NCBI GenBank assembly: GCA_036172245.1 | Contig: JAYWIR010000006.1 | Span: forward strand, 434,001-498,000 | Length of the DNA: 64,000 nucleotides | From: Raillietiella orientalis | Lineage: Eukaryota | Direction of reading: 5' to 3' | Shown: in pieces, positions 13,091 through 43,899 of the stretch | How positions within the stretch are numbered: the first letter of the stretch is position 1 | Layout: the number at the start of each line of letters is the position of its first letter | The notes under the pieces: generated by a model | Told to the model about the DNA's origin: nothing | Seen by the model: the letters and a program-made list of their open reading frames with translations, nothing else | Databases searched by the model: none | Position numbers and translations under genes: made by a program

Positions 13091-15502
13091 TCCCTCTTCG
13101 CCGCTGGAGCGGACCTCACGGGTCCGAAATTTGCATTCCGGTTTGGGCAAGTCTTTCGCGCGCTGTAGAACCTAGAGTTCTACCACGATATTGTAAAAAG
13201 TGGCAAATTTATTTTTTGGGATGTGGGAGTCACTCTCCCACATCAGATACCCCCAGGTGGGAAAATGACTCCAGTTATTGATGGGTGCTTTTATTCAAAT
13301 AGAGCAAAAATTCCAAACCATCAACCTGCTGTCTACAAGATGGTTGCATTCATTAATCAGAAGAATGAATTGCTGGAGAATTTTGCACTGGTCGTCTATA
13401 TACGAAAGGTTCATGGTGCTCACCAGCATCATTGTATTATGGTTCGTCGATGGTACACCAAAACAGTTCTTAAAAATTTTAGCGAAAACATTTTCTGCAC
13501 TCATTTACAAATCAAAAATTGCATTCATTGGAGCTGTAGTGCATTGCAACCTAACATGAGATAAAAATGAAAAATAGTTTCCAATAAATTTACTGTAACT
13601 GACTTTCACTTATGCCAATAAATTTCCAAAATTATATAGTTCTGCAAATAATTCTTCTACCCTTCATACTTTTGCTTCATACTTTTGCTTCTATGAATGA
13701 ATGCAACTTGTATTCTGGTGCCTCATTTTAATGAAAATGAATTTAGTAATAATCAAAAAAGGGGTAAATGATTGTGAATTATTTCATTGGCAACTTGTTA
13801 TACCCAGCTGCAACTTGTAATGTTTTCAATAATTGCTGGAAACAAATCATCTTACATTCCTGAAGTTTGTTCTTTTCGATCTTACCTCAGAAACTAAGAA
13901 AGAAGCTTTTATTACACAACGCCAATATTAGATTCAAAATGTAGCTGAGGCTTAAATAATAGATCCAGATGCTAATAGTCCCAGAAAGAAACATCCTTAC
14001 CAAAGTAACGTAAGCATTCTTAGAGGAAATCTCTGGAAATTAAATATGTAGAAATTTCTTTCTGATCCTAAAACAAGCAGCTTGCAACAATGAGGATATC
14101 ATGCCCTGATTTTTTTTTCTAGATTCGAATGCATTAGCTTTAAAAAAAAGATGTTTAGCTTAAGAGTAACATTAGTTTTTTAACGAACGAAATGTCACAA
14201 AATGAAAATTCCACTAAGTAAGTTGTAAAGTTATAAATCACCTTATCAGAAAAAAAAACAATTGGCTACCATTTCATTAATAGATAGTGCTATTATTTCA
14301 GAACTCTTATCTCAGTAATGGCGGCACCCTGAGGACGAAAATTCTGAATATGAAAGAAGTTCTGAAAAGTTTTAGAAACAATTCAATTCAGTGTATGAAG
14401 TTATGAATTGCCATAATCGAGACTCTAGGCCTTTTTTTTTTTACTACAAAAATATGAAACATCCGATTGTATCACTGTTATAAGAAATAAAATGCGATAA
14501 AGAAAGAGGAAATAGATAAGGAGTTTCTGTTTTCGCAGTTCAGAACTCGAAGTCTTTGTAGCTGCAAATTGTCTCATAATGGAGACCAGGCATTCATGGT
14601 TCCATTACAAGAAGAAATGTAACGATATAAAAAGACTATCAAATGAAGATCTCATCTATTGAAATGCATATCAACAGTTGCCCATGATTGGTTCGGTAAA
14701 CAATAAATGTTTCCAGAAATTGTTGCATTTCTTTGCATGAATTGAATGTCAGCAATCAGTATGGAAAACTTCTCCATGTCCGGTTAATTACATTGACCAT
14801 GAGGATGCATCTGCTATTTGATTCGGAAAAATCTACTGCATAAGTAGAAGACTTTCTTTCTTCACTGTTACTATTTTATTGCTAATTCTCAGATAAGCCT
14901 TAACGAATACCTGTTACTGTGGTGTACAGTTGCAAACCTCCTAAAGGAATGCTTTTACTGTTACCTTGAATGAATGAAATTAATTTATATTCTTATTTCA
15001 TATATTTTCTGTAAAAAACAAATATAATGTACCGAACTGCCGTCCCCGATAACTTGTTTTTAATATGTGAAAATTATCTTCAAACAAAAATCTTCAGAAA
15101 CCGCTCTGAAAGCTGGAAACTTTTTGTCATATCATATGTACTACAGATGAAATTTTTGAAACTGTATTTTTTATTTTCGTGTTATTCTGCGCTGCTGTAA
15201 CCATGTAAATACATGTATAATGAAGAGGAATAGACAAATGGTCCTTTAGTTTCGACAGTGCAAATCAGTCGACAAAGGGTCACTTGGGAACACGGGATGC
15301 TTGCGTTTCGCCGGCCTTCGTGCGTAGTATTGAATATATCATGCACATTTCGTTACATTAAATGTATCGTTAAAATCTTATTAGGATTTGTTTATATTAT
15401 TTTAATTATATGTAGTTTAGGAATCAGTAGATAAAAGATCCATAATTATCACTACCTTACGTATGCATTATTTTCAGATGAAATAAGATGAAATTGTAAG
15501 AA

Positions 15503-15715
15503 ATGTACAAGTATAGAAAAGCAACTCTAGTAGACACACTACACCGAAGTGGGGTATATTTCTGCGTTGGTGTAACAGTTGTGAATTTATTCCTGTTTTC
15601 CAAGAGTCTGTATAACTATTTTGCGGGCAAGAGAACCCTCACACAAACATCAGATGTGGAACAAATCGATGCCGAACTGTTAAAAGAAGGCATAGATAAG
15701 GAATCAGCGGCTTAA
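15503..15715 (+). CDS. COX14: Small single-pass membrane protein, cytochrome c oxidase assembly factor COX14-like
   Basis: 70 aa ORF KATLVDTLHRSGVYFCVGVTVVNLFLFSKSLYNYF...ELLKEG: L-x-D-x-x-H-R, one hydrophobic helix, then Y-x-Y-F, as in COX14-family proteins. Probable 5'UTR splice acceptor TTTTCAG ends at 15477. Confidence 0.7.
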   Translation: MYKYRKATLVDTLHRSGVYFCVGVTVVNLFLFSKSLYNYFAGKRTLTQTSDVEQIDAELLKEGIDKESAA

Positions 15716-15734
15716 TAGATGTCAACTTAATAAA

Positions 15735-16331
15735 ATGGTACCTCATATACAAAAATGTTTAACAAGCCTTTGCATTCATCTTAACAAATTGAAGACTAGC
15801 GTGTCTTTTTCTACTGTCAATGCCCACATATGGAAATTGGGAAAGTAAGATTTTAATTAGAAGATTTGAGATTAACTTCACTTTCAAGGCTGAACCATGT
15901 TGCTATTGCAGTACCAGACCTTTCCCAAGCAAGTTCCTTTTATCATGATGTTCTTGGTGCTGAAGTCAGTGATCCTATTGATCTACCTGAACATGGTGTT
16001 ACTACTGTTTTTGTTAATTTGGGAAATACCAAACTTGAACTCTTACATCCTTTAGGATCTGACAGCCCTATTCAGGTTAGAATTGTAGAATATGGGATGT
16101 TTATTTGGAACTATTAGACATTTGCAGGGATTTTTGGACCGTAACAAAACTGGAGGTTTACACCATATATGTTTGGAAGTGAGTAATTTAAAACTTGCCC
16201 AGAAACAAATCTTAGCAAAAGGAATACGGTGTTTGAGTAGTGAACCTCGAATTGGTGCTCATAACAAACCAGTTCTGTTTTTACATCCTAAAGACTGTGG
16301 TGGAGTTCTAGTAGAATTGGAACAAACCTAA
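15735..16331 (+). CDS. MCEE: Methylmalonyl-CoA epimerase, mitochondrial (VOC/glyoxalase fold), 3 exons
   Basis: Exons 15735-15844, 15889-16075, 16128-16331 (introns 44 and 52 nt, GT-AG) give MVPHIQKCLTSLC...HIWKLGKLNHVAIAVPDL...EHGVTTVFVNLGNTKLELLHPLG...GGLHHICLEV...IGAHNKPVLFLHPKDCGGVLVELEQ; metal ligands H, E, H, E present; N-terminus lacks acidic residues, like a presequence. Confidence 0.97.
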
Positions 16332-16367
16332 TTTTAAGTCCATTCTTCATTATATAATCGATACAGG

Positions 16368-16373
16368 AATAAA
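16368..16373 (+). promoter_or_regulatory. Polyadenylation signal for MCEE
   Basis: AATAAA about 36 nt after the MCEE stop, followed by a T-rich tract. Confidence 0.6.
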
Positions 16374-18975
16374 TTTAGAGCTAGACCATCAAGAAATTTT
16401 GTTTCTATTCTTTTTTGAAAAGTTTCTAAGAAGCTTTATTAAGTGCTATTATGAGAATACAGGATTTTTTTAAATATAATAAGGTTTTTTGTGAATAACT
16501 TTTAAAGCAGGTTTTTGTCCATGAGCGTAATTTGAATTTCCACATTATAAGAGTAGCTGATGTGAAATCATCTAAATGCACAATTAAGTTTATCATGTGT
16601 TGACCTTAATATTTCACATCAGTATAATTTTTTTGGTATTTTCAAGTTCATGTTACATCAATTAATTGAATGCATTATTTTACATCGCTTTTCAATGTAG
16701 AGTGCAATATTGATTTCATTTTGTAAGTTTTTAGAGAAATCGATTCATTGAGATTGCCATACATTTAATTGTTTTTTTGAATTGAGCATGACGGACATCC
16801 CAAGTTAAGAATAATTTCGTGCTGAATATAGCACAGTGCTTTCCATCTATTGAATTTTCATATGTACTTTGCATGGCAAAAGATGATTGAAAGATGTACT
16901 TCAGGCTTATTTTGTGTAAGTTACACACTTTGATTACTTAAAACTGTTTTTGGCCATCAGATGATTTATTTACGTGGGCATACAAAAGAGACTGCATAGC
17001 TTGCCACTTATAATTTAAATGTGACTTGTCACCATAGGTATTTGTAGCCCCTCCTGCAGATTACATTATAGTGCATACAATACCAATATGGTACTTTCAG
17101 TGCATACAAATCCTTAGAAATTCAATATGCAGGAAATATTTAGGATTCAAGTTTTTTAGTTCTGAATAAATCGTATTGGAAATAATTTGTATAGCTGTTG
17201 ATTCACCAATAACAAACACATATGAAAATCACCATTGGGACACAGGCTAACCAAAAATGCATAAGCAGGAAAAAATCCAACAAGAAATGCGTATGCAGAG
17301 GTTTTATAGTGTGAATGCTATGAGACCTATTTTCCAAAGTGAATGGGACAAACCTGAAATTTGAACACAGGGAACATGAAATTCAGCTGTTGTTTACACA
17401 ATGGTGAACAAAGCATTTCTCTTGAGTAAATACAAAATCACAAAAAGTGGGTATAACATGCGAGTGCTATCCAATTGTTCATGCCTTCTTTTTTAGTGAT
17501 TCCACTGTTTTCAGGAATTAAAATCTGGCAAGAACTTTAATCATGAACAGTTATTAATGGTAAATAATATCGAGCAGATCTCCATTCAATAAAATTATGA
17601 TGTCCCCAATTCCGACAAGCATTGGGGTGAATTAATTTGTACAAACTTTAAATCTTTCTTTTCTTGCTTTCACCATATTCTGATTTTTCAGTTGTCACTT
17701 CCGTTTTTGGGTTAGGAGGAGCGAGGGTTTATTCCTGCCTGGGCGTATTCGTTCATCTTCAGGAGGATGTGGCGATACGTCCAGGCTGGGACCCTTCCAC
17801 AATTACTGATCCCGATTTCTTTCTTCAATAGGCCTCTTAAGATCACTCATGCCGGTACTCTTCTTCCGGATGTATACATCTTTGCCCTTCTGATCACAAT
17901 TGCTGTGATGAAGAGGGCAAGCGTGGTAAGAACCGGCATGGGTTGTACAGGGGAACGATTCCGGTACCCTGGAACAAGCCCGCCAGAATTTCCATTTTCT
18001 TTCTTCTCTGCAGGCAGGTGACCGCCTTCAGCGCTTGCCAATCCAGGTCGCAGCGTGGGGCAGGTGAACACATGGAGCTGCTTTTCTACCGCTCCACACG
18101 CTTTGCAGAGTCCTTCCTGGATGTTCCCGTTCCAATGCCGCAATATGGAACCACTCAGAATCTCTACGTGATGACACAACAGGAGGTTGTCCTGAGTGTC
18201 CGGGGGAAGGTCATTTCTCATGAGTGCAGTCCCTCCAGCCAGCACATTTGCGTGCTCAAGTCCGTAGTGGCTCGAGGCTGCATCGAGGGCACCGTTATCC
18301 TGGTGTTCTTTGAAGATTTCCCTTTTGATATTGACTTTGGACATCAGCAGCCACGTCTGTTGCAGCAGCCGTTTCTAAAGCTCCTGTGTTCGATGGTTAA
18401 ATTTTCCTTTATGTTCGTAGTTAAGCGATACAGTCGCACATGGTGGAGATTCCCACTAGTGGCGAACTGTTCTCAGTGTTCCATCTTTAATCTTGGCCTC
18501 TTGTAAATCTAGTTTGCAGTCTCCTCGGGAATGGGTACAAATTAAGGTACGCTGTTATCCCTTAGGTAACTTTTTCTTTATTTCAAGATCACTATTACTC
18601 CATATAATATTACCAAACCATGAAGATAAATTCTTCATCATCCACCCCAGACAACATCCTCTCAAAATCTCATCTTATTACCAGAGCCAGCTCTTTTTCC
18701 TATATTTCCTTGCTTCTGGGTATGATCTTGAGTTGGTCAAGTCTCGGCAATGTCTGTTTTCGCTTCCATGTGGGGACGATATTCACCCATTCTCCAGTGG
18801 CCCTATCAACGCAGACATCAGGCCTCTCGAGCTGTTCAACAATCTCGAGTAGGCTGTGTGTGCTGCGAAAGGCCACTCGTCTCAGATCATGGTATGTTCC
18901 ATAATTTGCCGCGCGTCCATGCATTCCAGGAATGCTCTAGCAGCTTCAATCCTGTTCCTTCTTCCTCACGGGGTA

Positions 18976-19770
18976 TCACAGTAGTTGGAGCCTGACCTTC
19001 GGCCTATATTCTTTCCATAAAATTTTTCGTTGTAGATTTTCAATTCCTGTCCGAGTCTTGTTGATTCTGCAGAAGGCAGCTCCGTAGAACACCTTGAGAA
19101 ATAGACCACTATTCCACAAGGTGGCCCTCCGCTGCATATTGAAGTTGACTAGGGTGTACTTATTGGCTTCTTCTTGAATTTTCCCCAGGATTTCCTTCCA
19201 CAAATTTTGCGATGCAGCTGCATCGCCAAGGTGAATACCTAGGTACTTCATATCTTCCGCTACCCGGAATCCCTCCTCTGTCAGGGCGGAGAGATCCAGG
19301 ATTCCTATTGGCAACAGATGACTCTTTCGGGCATTGATTTTCAAACCCAAACCTTTCTGCATACGCTCGACTATACCTAGGAACGCACGCTGATCCTTCT
19401 CTTCCTTTAGGAAGAACAGGAGATCGTCCGCGTACGCCAGGTGAGTCAGCTTCTGATCATCGATGGTAATTCCTTGACAGCAGCTGCTTTTATCAACGAG
19501 TGTGATGCCGCCTTCATTATAACAGGAAAAGCATCGGACTGAGGGCATCGCCTTGGCAAACTCCTCTTTCCATCCGAATGGATGCTGTTTCTAATCCGTT
19601 GATGGAAAACCTTACTTTCTGTTTCTCAAGTGTCCTTTCCACATATTGCAGGAAGTAGCTTGGGAAACCCAGTTTCCTCAAGAGCATCCCGTGATCCACG
19701 GTATCAAAGGTTTTCCCCATATCGGTTAAACCCAGCACCAGGTTTTCACCGATGTATCGGCAATACCAGC
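18976..19770 (-). pseudogene. Reverse transcriptase domain of the L1/Tx1-like element (frameshifted, N-terminal part missing)
   Basis: ORFs 19517-19957 and 18976-19548 carry RT motifs KTFD, QGDALSP, YADD and KYLG across a frameshift. Confidence 0.92.
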
Positions 19771-22052: not shown

Positions 22053-22810
22053 TCAGTCTGCGACTCTGCGGATGTTAGTGTCCCGTAGAATCGTCTCGAT
22101 GAGATCCTGGTGACAGGGATGCGACTCAAACCAGGCTGGCATTCTAATAAGCGCAGCCCTTGCGCCTGCCTTCCTCCGAGGATTTTCAGTTCGCAACGTG
22201 AACCGCAGCAGAGGATGATCCGAGAGCAAGGATGGGACGTCTCGGAATTCCTGCACACGATTCGCAATGTCCTGACTGTAGAGGACATGGTCTATCGGTT
22301 TGTGGCTCTCCGTGAGCCACTGCAGCTGTCGATAGGTCCTTCTTTCCCAAGCGTCTTTGGACTGAGTGATGTTGTCCAATATATTCAGGTCTCCCATAAT
22401 GAGCACGACGTTCTTTGCCTCAGCCTTAGTTCGCAGCAGTGCCTGCGCGGCTTCCGCACAGCGATGTTTGCCTCGGGGTGGCCTGTATACCAGGAACAGG
22501 TGGACGTTTCCGAACCAGGACATGCGCACTCCGATTATTCGGCCTGGCCACGAAGAGAAGGTTTCCAAAATGGTGTACGCGATCTCGTTTTTCACGAGTA
22601 TCTCCTTTGTAGCTACTCCTTTGGTCCTTTTCTGGCCCACGCTCAGAAACAGCTGGACAACCAATCGTAGCTCGAGCTCCAGGATGGCCTGGTGCCCGAG
22701 GTCGTGGGTTTCCTGCAGGCGTACGATGTGGTCACGCTCGATCGTTCGCGTGACCAGCCGTCGTTTTTCCTGGTTCTACAACCCGTTTACATTCCAGGAA
22801 GCAACTTTAA
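22053..22810 (-). pseudogene. APE-type endonuclease domain of the L1/Tx1-like element
   Basis: SWNVNG, LQET, GVA, VYRP, GDLN, IDH and SDH motifs in order, with an in-frame stop and a frameshift. Confidence 0.9.
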
Positions 22811-28171: not shown

Positions 28172-29868
28172 GAAGTATCAACAAAAGGCATGAAGGTTTG
28201 CTATATTTTTTGTTGAATAGCCGAGAGCGTTGCACTGCTTTTTTGCGACCATTACGGAGTTTGATTTCGAATAATCAGCTGACCTCGCCCTTTTAGTTAC
28301 CTTACGAAATGAAAAATGAAAGATCCACGTGATTGGACCGAAATATCGGCAAGCGAGACTTTGTATTTTGGGGTTTCGGAAATCTTTGCGACTTCTGACG
28401 AACAGAAGATGCTCCTCTGAATGGTGATGATGTTCACGAAAACACAAGCACAAGTTTCCATTTTACCGGTTTATAAATCTGAGGCTGCGCCGTTTAAGAT
28501 GAGGTCCTTGGCCATCTACGCATGGATTCGGTATGCCACTGATAGCTTTTTGAAAAGGAAAACATGACTAGGATGTAAAACAAGACGAGGATCCAGTTGC
28601 CGGCAGCGAATCAGCAGGTGGTTTGGTGAATTCCTTTCTCTTTGAAATTGTGTTTGCAGTTTTTTTTTTTTTTTCCGTCTTTCGAGAGTGTGCCTCTGGA
28701 GAGCTTTTTTGACTACCTTTCCGGGAAAGTTGAAAACACACGCAGACATACTGTTTCCATAACGACAAAAAAGTGCAAGTTTGCAGAAACTGAATGAGAT
28801 CAATGGGTAGGAGAAACCAAGCTGGAAAGTGAGGATGTGATTGGAATCTCAAAGAGACGAGTGAAGACCCTTCAGTTTAATCCTATCTTATCTTTGGATG
28901 GTGTGTGAATGTCGTCATGGAAAATACTTTTCTTACGATCTTTAATACGTAAAGATGGGTTCTGTCTGTAAGAAACTAGATTTTCTTACTTTTACGATAA
29001 AGGATCTGAGCAAAATTCTCTGCCAACGTGGGTAACTCAAGCAAACACTCTTTCGTAAACACGAATCTGTTTATGAGATATCAACAGATATAATGAGGGT
29101 ATTTAAAAAGGATTGTAACAGATCGGGTATGTTCAGGTGATGAAATCCTACTCGTGCGAAGGAAATATCTGCTACAGAAGAAGACGCCATCGTTTTGACA
29201 TCTGTTGGTGCTTCATCTTTGAAAGATTGCAAAGAGGAACACCAAAAACGCAACTGTGCATGGAGATTTTTCTCATCCTACACCCATCAGCGTGAGAGTC
29301 AGTAAGTTCGATATTTCCAAAATCACAGTGTCTCATTGCAACGGTTCGCAGAGTTTGTTTTGTTTACCAGGTGGCCAGCAGTTCATAGTAGGAGACCCAA
29401 GAAGAACTGAACCCTACGAAGTGAAGTGGGTGAAAATAAAAAGGATGTTGTTGTCGGATGTTCCAATTTTCTCATTCCTTTCATTTCGCCATTTTCTCAG
29501 GAGTGTTCTTATCTAAAAGCGATCGATGACACAAGAATGAGTCACATTGCGTGAAAATATTTAATGATAAAATATTCAAGTGACCTTCTTAGTTCTTTTG
29601 AGTATTGGTTTCGCGATTTCAGACATTTGAGAATTGAGGCAGTAGCGTCACACTACATTGCCAAACGCTGCAAACAGGGCAGACATAAAAACAAAAATCT
29701 TAAACCAAAGGTCAACAAGGATGAATGAAGCGCGTACACGGATCCTCTTTTAATGCATGTTTGTGCGTATAGTCGGGGTGACCTTCAGAGCACAGTGGCG
29801 CATTTACCTTACGTGAAAGTTTCGCATTTCGAGAACTCTTAGGGAGAAATCTTCTACAGTTACTAAGC

Positions 29869-29941
29869 GCCCGGCTAGCTCAGTCGGTAGAGCATGAGGC
29901 TCTTAATCTGAGGGTCGTGGGTTCGAGCCCCACGTTGGGCG
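29869..29941 (+). tRNA. tRNA-Lys(CTT), variant anticodon stem
   Basis: GCCCGGCTAGCTCAGTCGGTAGAGCATGAGGCTCTTAATCTGAGGGTCGTGGGTTCGAGCCCCACGTTGGGCG; anticodon CTT at 29902-29904; differs from the canonical metazoan sequence as I recall it at two anticodon-stem positions. Confidence 0.95.
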
Positions 29942-29950
29942 TGAGCATCC

Positions 29951-38670: not shown

Positions 38671-39736
38671 ATGGCGAAAACATATGATTATCTGTTTAAA
38701 TTGTTACTGATTGGTGATTCCGGTGTCGGGAAAACCTGTGTACTATTTCGATTTTCAGAAGACTCCTTTAATCCATCCTTTATATCTACAATAGGCAAGT
38801 ATTTATTTTTTATCCTTTCAGTACCAAATGCTTAAATCATGTTTGACATTAATGACCAATTTGCCATATTATAATCAAATTCATCAAGTATGAGTTCATA
38901 GTTTTCAAAATATTTTGTACTAAAAAAAAAAAACATGCTTTTAGGGATTGATTTTAAAATAAGAACTATTGAGTTGGATGGAAAGAGAATCAAGCTGCAA
39001 ATATGGTAAACAGCTGGTTGTGTAAGCTAGCAGATCTTGCAATGCTGTTAGCAGGGATACTGCTGGACAAGAACGTTTTCGTACAATTACCAATGCATAC
39101 TATCGTGGAGCCATGGGCATTCTGTTAGTGTATGACATCACCAATGAGAAGAGCTTTGAGAATATTAAAAACTGGATCCGCAACATAGATGATCAAGCTT
39201 CATATGATGTAGAACGCATGATACTAGGAAACAAATGTGATATGAATGACAAGCGCCAGGTGTCCAGGGAGAGAGGAGAACAGCTGGCCATAGAGCACAG
39301 TATAAAATTTTTGGAGACAAGTGCAAAACAAGGCATTAACATTGAGGATGCCTTCATCACTTTGACTAGGGATATCAAGATCAAAGAAGAGAAAAAACTG
39401 GTAAGTAAAAGGACTTTCCTTCTGATCATTTGTTGCTGTCTCTCCTACTCCTCAATCTGATGGCTGCGGGGATTTTCCAGAAGGTACAGGTTGTCTTATC
39501 TTCCATATGCAATCTTGCACTTTCACTAACATGCTCTGCATGTGTATTGTGTTGTTGCATGTATGCTAAGATTACATAATTGAATTGAAATAATCTGTTT
39601 TCTCTATTAATTTTAATAACAGTAAATGGTGTGGTGTTTCTAGGAAAGAATTACTTCACAACCTTGCCAGCGTAGCCGACCTGTTAAACTTCAGGAATCC
39701 CGGAAACAGCTTCTTTCTTGGCTAGCTCATTGCTAG
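38671..39736 (+). CDS. Rab8: Ras-related protein Rab-8, 4 coding exons, 207 aa
   Basis: Exons 38671-38794, 38945-39005, 39055-39400, 39644-39736: [23 protein letters not shown]...[33 protein letters not shown]...[20 protein letters not shown]...GNKCD...ETSAK...SWLAHC*. Intron 1 has a GC donor. Confidence 0.95.
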
Positions 39737-39848: not shown

Positions 39849-41414
39849 TCATCTTCCTTCTTTGTCTTTATCTCTTTCTTTATCTTTTTTATCTTTTCTC
39901 CTTTCTTTTCGTTCTTTATCACGATCCTTATCTTTGTCCTTGTCTTTGTCTCTATGCTTAGAAGAAGAATGAGGACGATGATGCCGAGACCGCCGTTCAG
40001 TAGGTGTGTGACTGTGGGATTTGGTTCTGCATCGGCTACGATGACAATCATCCTTTTCTCGTTCCCGTTCTCTGTCCCTGTCTCTGTCTCGATCACGATC
40101 CCTATCACGTCCTCTACGTTCTTCTCGTGATCGCTCTTTTGGTCCAAGATCACCATTTTTATGGGAATATGAGTATGGTGTAGAGTGACCTCCATAAGCA
40201 TCAGAACTAGGATGGTCCCAACTGGATCCTCTCCAGTGACCATCAGATGCACTTTCATAAGGATAAAATGATTCCGATTCCCCAGCAAAATAATCTTGAC
40301 CATATCCAGGAGGTGGCATGTGAGGAGGGAGGGCATTGGAATAGCTGGCTATATTTCCAGCAGGTTCATAACCTGGTGGAGGAACAGACAAGTCAGGAAA
40401 TCCTGCTTGCATAACCTTCCGGCTATATTCTCTTTTGTCTGCAGTCATAACTTCAATTGTATTTTCTTTGGATGGAGTATCTCCTCGAGATAACCCACCA
40501 CTCATAAGATCTATTGGTCCACGACGGTTTTGGGAAAGACATCCTTTTCTTGAACTGCTGCTGTTTGTGTATTTGCTGTTCTCATTGATAATTGACACAG
40601 GGATAGAGCCAGGGACTGGGAATCCTTTCAGCATTGAAACACCTGCTTCCTGAGTGCGTAACCTTTTTTGTCTTTCACAATAGGCTCGCCATGTATCTTC
40701 AGTAAACCCATAATTAAAATAATCAGTAATATCCGATCCAGGTTTTCGCCAAGGCTTATCTTCCAAAGAATCTAAATTAAATTCGTGTGCTGGTACACCA
40801 TTGATGGAGCCTACAGATTCCAGATCATTCATGCTTAATCCAGCAGTTACAGCAGAGGGGAGGGAAGTTATTAACTTATTCTTATCAGTCACTCCAGTGG
40901 GATAACTTCCCTTTTTCAAATTAAAATTAACTGATGCACCTGTATTATAATTAAATGCTGCAGATGTCTTGATATCCCCTATTGTGACTTGCACATCATC
41001 ATCACTATCGTCTTCCTCCTCTCCCATATCTTCAGTTTTTTCTGACTGCTCAACTGACTTATCAGTATTTTCCTTTTCACAATTCGGATCTTCTGATACC
41101 TCTAACTGCGAGTTCTGGTCTGTTTCGCATAATTCTTCGTTTTGTTTGTCGACGGAAGGCATTTCTTCATTTGGTACTGTATCTTCCATCCCTTCTTCCA
41201 TCGGTGTTTCAGGGTTCACAAGTGGGATCTCAATGAGAGAAGTCTTACAATCATTTTCCTCAATCGTTTCCTGAACTACGGGTTCCACTGCATTCGTACT
41301 CTCCAAACTTGGTTCAGAAGTCATCGTTTCGTCTTTTTTCGCACTTTCGGGTTCGCCTTCCTCTCCGTATAACCACTCGTCCTCATTTAAAACTTCTAAA
41401 CCAACAGCCGCCAT
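39849..41414 (-). CDS. FIP1L1: Pre-mRNA 3'-end-processing factor FIP1 (CPSF subunit), single coding exon, 521 aa
   Basis: Acidic N-terminus with [22 protein letters not shown], Fip1 motif [33 protein letters not shown], Pro-rich region, RD/RE repeats and basic tail. First ATG at 41414. Confidence 0.97.
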
Positions 41415-43899
41415 GTCCACAAAACACGAAAACTTAAACAGCAAAATACAAATAATATATTTAACTGCACATATTCACACAAGAAGTCCGAATTTTCTAA
41501 CAATTCGAGAAATATCTCAGTCTATTGAGACATTTGTGTTAAGCCTTATTAACTTTGAAATACATGCCTTGCAAATCGTCTTGACAGACGAGCAACTGAC
41601 TCAGAGTTACCAGCTGCATGACACATGTGATGCACAAATTCTAAAAACTCAAGCTTAAACTACATTCGTCTTTAGTGCGACCATTCAATTGACAATATAA
41701 ATTTTATAGTTTAAATAAGGTTCAAATAAGCATTGAAACTAAATGTTAGTTTATTACCAGAAGTTGTTATACACTTTGTCATTCCTTACAATCATAAGTA
41801 AGCTTGAAAGGAACTGGAAATTCAGCTTAATGGCCGAAGACATATTGAGTTTCTACGTGCTATGCATCTTATAGATAATAAAGATGGCTGAATACATGCT
41901 TGTATGGGAGAGAGTTTTCTCTAAGATTATTAGGAAAATTTATGCTCTGTGAGTATGTAATCCAAATATAAAGTCTTAAAACACTTATTTGTAATATCAA
42001 GAACCAGTAGTCTAGGACTATGATTTCTTGATATTCATTCATATTTTCTTGATAATATTATTGATTTCTTGATATTCTAAATGACATTACTCAAAGATTC
42101 AGAGCAACTTTTGATAAAATAAACTCACATTCCAAATTCATTTCTGTTGTAGAGATAAGGCACACAGACGATTAATTACAATAAATAATCATATAAGTGT
42201 GATTGTATGTGTATATCATAATTAGTGAAAAGTATCGAAACATTTATTTGTTAACATTTAGTTAGTTGATCATAAAGTTAAATCATTGATTAAAAACTCC
42301 AATCAGAAAATAGGATTTTCTAATCTTTCAAATTATACATCCTTTTTTTCTGTTATCCTCATAATTACAATACAATTCTTATGCTCTGTTTTTAGAACGG
42401 TTTTTTTTTTCCTTCCCATGTATTTATAATCTCTATGGAAGTGAAGTTCAGGATTGCAATGGCAATTTCATCCCCAAAGAGTAGCGTGACTGGAACTTGA
42501 GGTTAACAGCATTATTAATACTGATACGAAAAAATTCAGCACCAATCGAAGATAAAAAAAAATTTTTTTTCAAGTCTATTGATGAGAGGATGAAAAGAAA
42601 GTTCAATAGCTAATGAATTAGGATTTTGGATGGAAAATAACTGATCCAGTTTGTCATGGTAACAATTATGTGCCATATTTGCATTCGATGAGACATGACA
42701 CGTGTAGTCTTCATTTTGCATGTGTCTCGTTATATTCTTCTTAAAGCAAGAAAGTTCATATCAGAAATTTCGAATCATGGAAAAGCAATTTGATCAGTTA
42801 GACTAAACTAACTAAATCGGACTAAAGCAATTTCACTTTTCTTTAGAGAGAAATGAGCAAAAAACAGTAAGAGCGGAATGATAACAGTGAAACAAAAATA
42901 AAGGAACACGAAAATATATGGGTCTCATTTACCCTGTTCATCGGGTAAAAAGGAAGGTCTTATTCTGTTCATTAATACAAGGGCAGATTTTCTAATTAAG
43001 AAAGGGGGGTGATGAGAAGGAAGAAGACCAGGAATACAGACTTTGAATGCGAAAGATTTCAGAAATAAAGCTGTTTGAGAAAAGAAAAGAAAAAGTGAAA
43101 GCATATTGGGATGGTTTCACGCATCGGTTTCATAAAATTATCTTATGAAGATGTGCTTTTAGCATACTTGATCATGATGGCCCATAAAAGGTCTAGTGTT
43201 AGTTAGCTGATCTCACTTCAGTTTACGGTATTTTAAGCCTTTTCTGAGTACGAGTCATCTCAGTATCGGAGCGTGAAACACTTACATGATAGCTAATCAA
43301 GGGAGAGAAGCTGTGTATCAGAAGCTGAAGGAGAAAGTCGAATTGTCTGAATTCAGCATTGCAGCATTGCCGTCTTCCTTGTTCCACTACTGTATCTCCT
43401 CCCCTACCGAGTCTTTTTAGATAACCTCAAGGAACTGGAACTTCAAGGAACTTCCCCCTTCTCTCTGGAATGAACAAGGAAAAAAGGAGACTTTTCTGGT
43501 TCGCGCTTCTCATCTTCATATAATTAGGGATCCTTGCCATCTAAAATGAGGTCAATTTCGCATGCCTCAAGAGGGCATGGCGAAACGAAAATGAGATCTC
43601 CAAATTCGCAGTTCTCAACCGTTGCCGAAGACATGCTTCTCTTGCGGACTGTGATCACTTGAAGTACGAGCTTAGCTTCTTAGCCCTTCAGACGAAGGAA
43701 CCACATCTTGTTACAAACGCACGGATTGGTTCCAAGTAACGAACGGCCCTACCTCGCGCTTCGTACTGCTTAAGAAGCGCAGAGTTATGAGATCCTTAGA
43801 TCGTACTGCCTTCCACCACAAAGTAGCAGTTTACCCTCCACAGACTGCAGATCTCTATTTCATCCGGTCACGCTCACTCGAAAATGCTTTACGGACACC

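Follow-up and report, generated by a model that had tools for sequence, protein, structure and literature searches.

A COX14-like open reading frame 19 nt upstream of the methylmalonyl-CoA epimerase gene of Raillietiella orientalis: a candidate dicistronic pair

The window analysed here, 64,000 nucleotides of contig JAYWIR010000006.1 of Raillietiella orientalis, contains two distinct open reading frames (ORFs) that lie in tandem on the forward strand without overlapping. The downstream gene comprises three exons at 15735..15844, 15889..16075 and 16128..16331, the last including the TAA stop, which are separated by introns of 44 nt (15845..15888, GTAAGA ... TTTCAAG) and 52 nt (16076..16127, GTTAGA ... 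TTTGCAG). Joining the exons by these coordinates gives a protein of 166 aa with no internal stops. Both of its halves pass the Pfam Glyoxalase_4 cut-off of 27 bits: the score is 45.6 bits for exon 2, which encodes the first half of the domain, and 34.1 bits for exon 3. In BLAST comparisons the three-exon model is 62–74% identical over 135–158 aa to the best 15 of 122 proteins, which include vertebrate proteins named MCEE, and 11 of these 15 alignments are ungapped. Exon 2 taken by itself is 69–84% identical to the 120 matches listed, and nearly all of those that carry a name are called MCEE. These comparisons firmly identify the predicted gene as methylmalonyl-CoA epimerase (MCEE; VOC/Glyoxalase_4 fold), in agreement with an earlier note on this DNA. 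MCEE is a mitochondrial enzyme of propionate catabolism, and exon 1, whose start codon has the context aataaaATGg, encodes a presequence-like N-terminus of about 37 aa containing, as a matter of composition only, eight K/R/H residues and no D/E.

The upstream ORF (15503..15715, forward strand) begins with ATG at 15503, ends with a TAA whose last base is 15715, and encodes 70 aa; an in-frame stop lies immediately 5′ of it at 15497–15499. Its product matches the Pfam COX14 profile (PF14880) with an E-value of 3.8e-5 and 23.8 bits, which is 1.2 bits below the curated gathering cut-off of 25, and residues 5–48 align to profile positions 5–48 of 59. An exhaustive HMMER search among 1.84 billion representative proteins (1.84e9) returned two matches at E ≤ 0.001. 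P0121, a 75-aa protein coded on a 1176-base contig, matches with an E-value of 3.4e-5 and 37% identity over residues 5–65, and itself clears the Pfam COX14 cut-off with 48.4 bits (E 8.2e-13). The two proteins begin at coinciding positions, and the 70-aa ORF retains the transmembrane segment and an unbroken frame; the likeness extends past the Pfam domain to an ELL(K/R)EG motif near the C-terminus that is common to both. The other match, P0122, is a repetitive diatom hypothetical protein of 673 aa matched in four stretches; it was taken as a compositional match, leaving P0121 as the only credible relative. A profile built from the 70-aa ORF and P0121 retrieved P0121 alone from the clustered proteins, and a sequence search of solved structures found no COX14-like chain, the best match (E 0.069) being an unrelated contactin. 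The nearest Atlas cluster is arthropod COX14, 70 aa (score 0.92, 203 of 256 features).

COX14 is an inner-membrane protein of complex IV assembly with a role in COX1 synthesis and assembly, and members of the family are typically small (about 55–75 aa) and cross the membrane once, through a helix in their N-terminal half. The 70-aa protein resembles this COX14/C12orf62 family in size, in the span of its profile match and in having one predicted transmembrane segment in its N-terminal half (residues 16–32, the best 17-residue hydrophobic window, mean Kyte-Doolittle 1.91), and differs from the profile in an extended C-terminal tail that it has in common with P0121. Because three partly independent lines of evidence converge, namely the Pfam profile, a relative that passes as COX14 and the Atlas cluster, the ORF very probably encodes a COX14-family protein. 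The COX14-like identity suggested earlier thus gains support from P0121 and the cluster, with the direct Pfam score falling just short of its cut-off.

The spacer between the COX14-like stop and the MCEE ATG at 15735 is 19 nt long (15716..15734), and the positions given in the earlier note for the stop, the gap, the MCEE ATG and two AATAAA hexamers at 15729 and 16368 all hold on the sequence. With only 19 nt from stop to start, any MCEE 5′ UTR longer than this must include COX14 coding sequence. Within the spacer are a second in-frame stop for the COX14-like ORF (TAG, 15716–15718), a mini-ORF of three codons (ATG 15719, stop ending at 15730), and AATAAA at 15729–15734, which adjoins the MCEE ATG and has a CA (15750) and a TGTTT (15756) downstream of it. 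The only other AATAAA within 15000–16800 (16368..16373, forward strand) begins 37 nt past the MCEE stop, precedes a T-rich stretch and is likely the MCEE polyadenylation signal. The hexamer is not enriched locally, with six copies in 14000–17600 against 5.1 ± 2.3 expected from 1000 shuffles; the chance that one starts within 40 nt past a given stop is about 6%.

The pair sits alone in an AT-rich island: no other recognisable gene was found within 15 kb on its 5′ side or 2.6 kb on its 3′ side. None of the 36 other ORFs of at least 40 aa in 13.3–18.0 kb reached a Pfam cut-off; these are 36 of the 40 such ORFs in the 13.3–17.8 kb scan, and the other four overlie the COX14 ORF and the MCEE exons. 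Outside this region the scan took in 150 of 529 ORFs of at least 55 aa, covering 1–13.6 and 17.8–19.8 kb, and the sole match among the 150 was a LINE reverse transcriptase. Across the window, 27 of the 82 ORFs of at least 120 aa were scanned, with 19.8–64 kb sampled through large ORFs only. Since 19 nt contrasts with kilobases of flanking DNA that hold no other recognised gene, random placement is an unlikely explanation for the spacing, and the isolation of the pair means that its closeness is not due to genome compaction.

Across 15000–15760 there is no TATA[AT]A, and the initiator consensus TCAKTY matches once, which is about chance level. This Inr-like TCAGTC (15265..15270, forward strand), a candidate start site inside the sole locally GC-richer block upstream, is the only core-promoter-like match upstream of the COX14-like ORF. 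The promoter proposed earlier near 15300 has this one chance-level match as its sole sequence support. A scan for bacterial-type promoters and terminators gave 11 sites against 16.2 expected, a result that is irrelevant for a eukaryote. Just ahead of the COX14 ATG, at 15472..15501 on the forward strand, an acceptor-like TTTTCAG ending at 15477 and a donor-like GTAAGA at 15496–15501 could serve 5′-UTR splicing or a splice that leaves out the COX14 ORF. With G at −3 and T at +4, the COX14 AUG stands in a moderate context. All three AUGs that intervene before MCEE (15654, 15669 and 15719) have a pyrimidine at −3, and their ORFs, of 9, 4 and 3 codons respectively, each end before 15735. The count of three against 4.4 expected from composition is not a depletion and gives no hint that a path free of AUGs has been selected for. 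The MCEE AUG, with AAA in front and G at +4, matches the optimal fly context CAAAATG (PMC9681215).

In line with the earlier note, which suggested a dicistronic mRNA with alternative polyadenylation, we propose that the two genes form a tandem unit in which at least part of the MCEE mRNA starts 5′ of 15503 and carries the whole COX14 ORF, a reading to which we give an even chance. Such an mRNA would be dicistronic in the sense used by FlyBase. Ribosomes would begin COX14 at the first substantial AUG, and MCEE would be reached by leaky scanning past the moderate COX14 AUG and the three weak AUGs or, alternatively, by scanning that resumes after the tiny ORFs of the latter. The AATAAA at 15729 may additionally yield a short mRNA encoding COX14 only. 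The genuineness of both ORFs, the 19-nt gap, the isolation of the pair, the AUG map and the fly precedent all fit a dicistron. Against it, the intervening AUGs are not depleted. Many ribosomes should also be engaged by a leading ORF of 70 codons whose AUG has a purine at −3, and reinitiation after an ORF of that length across 19 nt is generally inefficient. The AATAAA at 15729 with its downstream CA and TGTTT also resembles a usable poly(A) site, at which cleavage would fall inside MCEE exon 1, and no upstream core promoter was found beyond the chance-level Inr-like match. In sum, the features fit a dicistronic mRNA, and they could also be reconciled with MCEE transcription that begins internally or with splicing past the ORF. 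A stronger version, in which MCEE is made only from the dicistronic mRNA by reinitiation after the full COX14 ORF, use of the 15729 poly(A) site sets the COX14:MCEE ratio, and the arrangement links respiration with odd-chain and branched-chain catabolism as a conserved feature of arthropods, appears improbable. A metagenome scan for the same adjacency elsewhere, using the ORF and P0121 profile, gave 191 pattern matches, none of which was confirmed by tblastn.

Comparable arrangements are known in animals. FlyBase annotates 159 dicistronic pairs in D. melanogaster, 82% of which are not tandem duplicates (Crosby et al. 2015, PMC4528330). The present pair resembles these in that two separate conserved ORFs of an arthropod nuclear genome share a strand and are divided by a very short spacer. 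Its two products, like those of that 82%, have no sequence relationship, and monocistronic and dicistronic isoforms may be mixed here as in the fly pairs. Dicistronic status in the fly is documented by cDNA, RNA-seq and start-site data; for COX14/MCEE it is a prediction from sequence. The words 'COX14', 'cytochrome', 'epimerase' and 'mitochondrial' do not occur in six supplementary files of PMC4528330, a set that excludes file 1, which may hold the gene list. A closer parallel is offered by sloth1/sloth2, the SMIM4 and C12orf73 orthologues, two mitochondrial small proteins made from one Drosophila mRNA with a 5-nt spacer through leaky scanning, as shown by reporters (Bosch et al. 2022, PMC9681215). 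As predicted for the COX14-like ORF, the first ORF there specifies a mitochondrial protein of about 70–80 aa that spans the membrane once and takes part in respiratory-complex biogenesis, and in both pairs the downstream AUG lies in an optimal AAAATG context and the upstream AUG in a poorer one. The spacers are likewise tiny, 5 nt there and 19 nt in the COX14/MCEE pair. Leaky scanning is here something that we infer. Moreover, sloth1 and sloth2 are paralogues that both act in complex III, whereas COX14 and MCEE share an organelle only, and MCEE, unlike the two sloth smORFs, is a normal-sized enzyme gene with introns. Spliced-leader operons with almost no intercistronic region, described for Ciona, Oikopleura and the SL1-type operons of C. 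elegans (PMC7986045), likewise have an upstream poly(A) signal that adjoins the start of the downstream gene across a spacer of few bases; unlike them, the present locus has no convincing trans-splice acceptor between the AATAAA and the MCEE ATG.

Other accounts of the locus differ mainly in how MCEE would be transcribed. In one that is unlikely but deserves serious weight, the genes are two overlapping monocistronic units: MCEE has its own transcription start within the COX14 coding sequence, the 15729 signal terminates the COX14 mRNA by cleavage in MCEE exon 1, and no abundant mRNA holds both complete ORFs. The CA and TGTTT behind that signal, and the low chance of an AATAAA so soon after a given stop, argue for such a COX14 3′ end, although the hexamer is not locally enriched and is partly forced by the AAA that precedes the MCEE ATG. 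An ATCGAT core at 15665–15670, 65 nt ahead of the MCEE ATG, presumably resembles the DRE housekeeping promoter motif of flies and could mark the internal start; however, neither TATA[AT]A nor a TCAKTY Inr lies within the COX14 ORF, and a promoter within a 210-nt coding sequence would be unusual given the kilobases of apparently gene-free DNA on both sides. The argument of the earlier note that there is no room for an intergenic promoter is weaker than presented, since a promoter could lie inside the COX14 ORF. Internal starts are common in this setting, since monocistronic transcripts for both genes also arise at 45 of the 159 Drosophila dicistronic loci (PMC4528330).

Splicing could instead remove the COX14 ORF from MCEE mRNAs, either in cis from GTAAGA at 15496 to the sole AG of the spacer (15717–15718, upstream of the AATAAA) or, if this is a trans-splicing lineage, by addition of a spliced leader at that AG, so that one pre-mRNA gives two monocistronic mRNAs. 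We regard this as a doubtful alternative. The donor-like hexamer is identical to the real intron-1 donor, but GTAAG is expected about once by chance here, as estimated from base composition. The tract ahead of the AG is 40% pyrimidine, which bears out the earlier observation that the gap has no pyrimidine-rich acceptor; as an argument this is weak, because the two real MCEE acceptors, at 50–60%, are not pyrimidine-rich either, and the AG cannot be dismissed on that ground. Joining at 15719 would nevertheless leave the mini-ORF ATG ahead of the MCEE ATG. Trans-splicing of a spliced leader is known from copepods and amphipods, although the trans-splicing arthropods were without reported operons as of the same survey (PMC7986045). 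A search of the 64-kb window with Rfam gave no spliced-leader RNA, a weak point that says little on the whole genome. Least probable in our estimation, the 70-codon ORF might not be a working protein gene, or might never have been one, and could be a decaying remnant or serve only as a long upstream ORF with a regulatory function within the MCEE leader. Its Pfam score lies under the gathering cut-off, a word-index search of 5.8 billion clustered proteins found no close relative, and 68 of 134 control ORFs equal or exceed its codon-usage log-odds, so the ORF is not set apart by that score, which was trained on Fip1, a Ras-like exon and MCEE and is uninformative. Low scores are expected if, as we infer, COX14 proteins are short and fast-diverging, and the similarity to P0121 across residues 5–65, beyond the Pfam domain and including ELL(K/R)EG, speaks against this account, as do the coinciding starts, the retained transmembrane segment, the intact frame and the grouping with arthropod COX14 in the Atlas.

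The earlier note knew of no description of the pairing of COX14 with MCEE, and we likewise found no publication on it. If the proposed shared mRNA is real, COX14/MCEE would join an already known class of animal dicistronic pairs and would not be the first of its sort, given how common such pairs are in Drosophila (159). If the genes merely overlap, the locus represents ordinary tight gene packing. One mRNA carrying both ORFs would extend the known dicistronic genes of animals by a pair of mitochondrial proteins that belong to different pathways, and would provide a compact natural test case for the translation of a normal-sized spliced gene behind a 70-codon ORF. It would also mean that a COX14-type assembly factor can hide in sequence that pipelines would annotate as the MCEE 5′ UTR, which would account for small assembly factors that are missing from arthropod gene sets.

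The plus-strand ORF of 70 codons at 15503–15715 (ATG 15503, TAA 15713–15715) ends 19 nt before the ATG of the methylmalonyl-CoA epimerase gene MCEE (15735) on the same strand, and a dicistronic reading of this arrangement is a reasonable one that fits the sequence. The coordinates that the earlier note had assigned to the COX14-like ORF, the gap, the MCEE ATG and both AATAAA hexamers were all confirmed, and the hexamers, at 15729–15734 and 16368–16373, are the only ones in 15000–16800. An in-frame stop at 15497–15499 lies directly 5′ of the COX14 ATG, so that an upstream extension of the ORF is impossible without splicing. Two tiny ORFs precede this ATG in 15478–15499 (ATG AAA TAA at 15478 and ATG AAA TTG TAA at 15488), themselves directly preceded by an acceptor-like TTTTCAG; if part of the transcript, they would modulate translation of COX14 as well. 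At the other end, 15713–15733 holds four COX14-frame stops in 21 nt, with a mini-ORF, ATG TCA ACT, between TAA TAG and TAA TAA, the last two stops overlapping AATAAA.

The downstream partner is an epimerase gene. Its three plus-strand exons by our reading (15735–15844, 15889–16075 and 16128–16331), separated by GT-AG introns of 44 nt (15845–15888) and 52 nt (16076–16127), join to 501 nt encoding 166 aa with no internal stops. Introns of this size are at the short end of the range for arthropods and, with their acceptors, may aid in placing the organism. The family assignment made previously is supported by Pfam Glyoxalase_4 on both halves (45.6 and 34.1 bits, cut-off 27) and by 62–74% identity over 135–158 residues to the best 15 matches among 122 proteins, which include vertebrate proteins named MCEE and of which 11 align without gaps. 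With exon 2 as query, 4010 of 4079 candidate proteins matched at E <= 0.001; the 120 matches listed are 69–84% identical, and the named ones are almost all MCEE. The first 37 residues contain eight basic and no acidic residues, a composition such as a mitochondrial presequence would have.

The small ORF is very probably a fast-evolving member of the COX14 family, with the direct Pfam test just under threshold. Alone, it matches PF14880 at E 3.8e-5 and 23.8 bits, 1.2 bits short of the curated cut-off; the earlier COX14 assignment is supported by this match together with a relative and the nearest ESM Atlas cluster. A word-index search of 5.8 billion proteins gave no candidate relatives, and HMMER, run exhaustively against 1.84 billion representatives, gave two matches at E <= 0.001. 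One, the unnamed protein P0121 (75 aa), comes from a single Logan contig of 1176 bases; it matches residues 5–65 (E 3.4e-5, 37% identity) and itself clears Pfam COX14 (48.4 bits, E 8.2e-13). The two align from the same start position with 25 identical columns, including D-x-L-H, G-V-Y-x-C, Y-N-Y and, near the C-terminus and outside the Pfam domain, E-L-L-(K/R)-E-G. The other, P0122, a repetitive 673-aa diatom protein, is regarded as a compositional match. The nearest ESM Atlas cluster (score 0.92, 203 of 256 features in common) comprises 95 proteins, mostly arthropod, with a 70-aa representative, and 85% of it carries COX14. The ORF has one hydrophobic segment, at residues 16–32.

An AT-rich island of about 33% G+C, at roughly 13.5–17.7 kb, holds the pair and is flanked by GC-richer blocks (about 50% G+C) with LINE fragments. 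Minus-strand LINE-type matches occur at 18979–19590 and 22056–22775 (RVT_1, E 4.6e-8; Exo_endo_phos endonuclease, E 8.4e-12), and both strands of these blocks carry many overlapping long ORFs. In 13.3–18.0 kb, the 36 other ORFs of at least 40 aa all fall below their Pfam cut-offs, including one with a weak match to GPR180 at 16 bits, and reverse transcriptase is the sole match among 150 ORFs of at least 55 aa in 1–13.6 and 17.8–19.8 kb. A 19-nt spacing amid kilobases of apparently gene-free flank is thus not explained by general genome compaction. Farther along, an uninterrupted minus-strand Fip1 ORF of 541 codons (39852–41474; Fip1 motif E 4.8e-24), possibly a retrocopy, possibly just a large exon, converges with a plus-strand Ras/Rab-family exon (39026–39457; E 1.6e-41) about 395 nt away. 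The nearest ESM Atlas clusters are arthropod for both this ORF and the small ORF, which makes an arthropod source likely. Rfam yields a single match at gathering threshold across the 64-kb window, a plus-strand tRNA-Lys(CTT) at 29868–29942.

That both ORFs share one mRNA is, in our estimate, the likeliest reading, at about even odds. Several sequence features would favour it: an MCEE leader of more than 19 nt necessarily includes COX14 coding sequence; the COX14 AUG context is middling, with G at −3 and T at +4; the three AUGs between the two starts (15654, 15669 and 15719) each have a pyrimidine at position −3, and their ORFs, of 9, 4 and 3 codons, all close before 15735; and the MCEE AUG context, AAAATGG, is the one that the sloth1/sloth2 study (PMC9681215) quotes as optimal in flies. 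Ribosomes would then come to MCEE by leaky scanning, or by resuming scanning past the tiny ORFs. Counting against a shared mRNA, or neutral, would be the AUG count, which is not depleted (3 seen vs 4.4 expected from composition), the 70-codon first ORF, which should hold back most ribosomes, the AATAAA at 15729 and the chance-level initiator. The promoter previously placed near 15300 has one Inr-like TCAGTC at 15265, inside the only locally GC-richer block, to its credit; one such match per 760 nt is roughly chance expectation, and TATA[AT]A is absent from the same 760 nt.

A pair of overlapping monocistronic units, in which the MCEE start site would lie within the COX14 ORF, is less probable than a shared mRNA and on balance unlikely. 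Downstream of the AATAAA at 15729 come CA at 15750 and TGTTT at 15756, which speaks for such units and makes plausible a COX14-only mRNA whose end lies within MCEE exon 1; this isoform could also exist alongside the dicistronic mRNA. AATAAA shows no local enrichment (6 seen vs 5.1 ± 2.3 expected), and the chance of one within 40 nt after a given stop is about 6%. An ATCGAT palindrome at 15665–15670, within the COX14 ORF and 65 nt 5′ of the MCEE ATG, is similar to the core of DRE, a housekeeping-promoter motif of flies, and might indicate an internal promoter for MCEE. Splicing out of the COX14 ORF, in cis or in trans at 15718/15719, is improbable. The earlier argument against splicing in the gap is nevertheless weakened, since the real MCEE acceptors are not pyrimidine-rich either (50–60% C+T in the 20 nt before AG, against 40% pyrimidine before the sole AG of the spacer, at 15717–15718) and a donor-like GTAAGA at 15496, just 5′ of the COX14 ATG, is identical to the real intron-1 donor. 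Least probable, and very much so, is that the small ORF acts merely as a regulatory upstream ORF, or is a decaying one. A codon-usage score was uninformative about it, 68 of 134 control ORFs being as high. These readings and the dicistronic one are not fully exclusive, since FlyBase's 159 pairs show every mixture of mono- and dicistronic isoforms (PMC4528330).

Drosophila has well-established dicistronic nuclear genes, those pairs making up 2.5% of its gene models (PMC4528330), and the COX14/MCEE locus would belong to the same kind. Relevant examples include sloth1/sloth2, two small mitochondrial proteins translated from one mRNA by leaky scanning over 5 nt (PMC9681215), and the spliced-leader operons of tunicates and nematodes, which have nearly no spacer; trans-splicing is known in copepods and amphipods, with no operons reported there (PMC7986045). 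The locus would differ from known dicistronic pairs in its partner: MCEE is an enzyme gene of normal size, with introns, and serves an unrelated mitochondrial pathway. The earlier note knew of no description of this pairing, and the titles and abstract openings listed likewise yielded no COX14-MCEE pairing and no nuclear dicistronic COX14, the paper that joins methylmalonyl-CoA epimerase with bicistronic expression concerning bacterial engineering; 'COX14', 'cytochrome', 'epimerase' and 'mitochondrial' do not occur in the six supplementary files of PMC4528330 that were searched. The locus would matter more if the COX14-MCEE adjacency is conserved across arthropods, and more also if MCEE depends on translation behind the 70-codon ORF.
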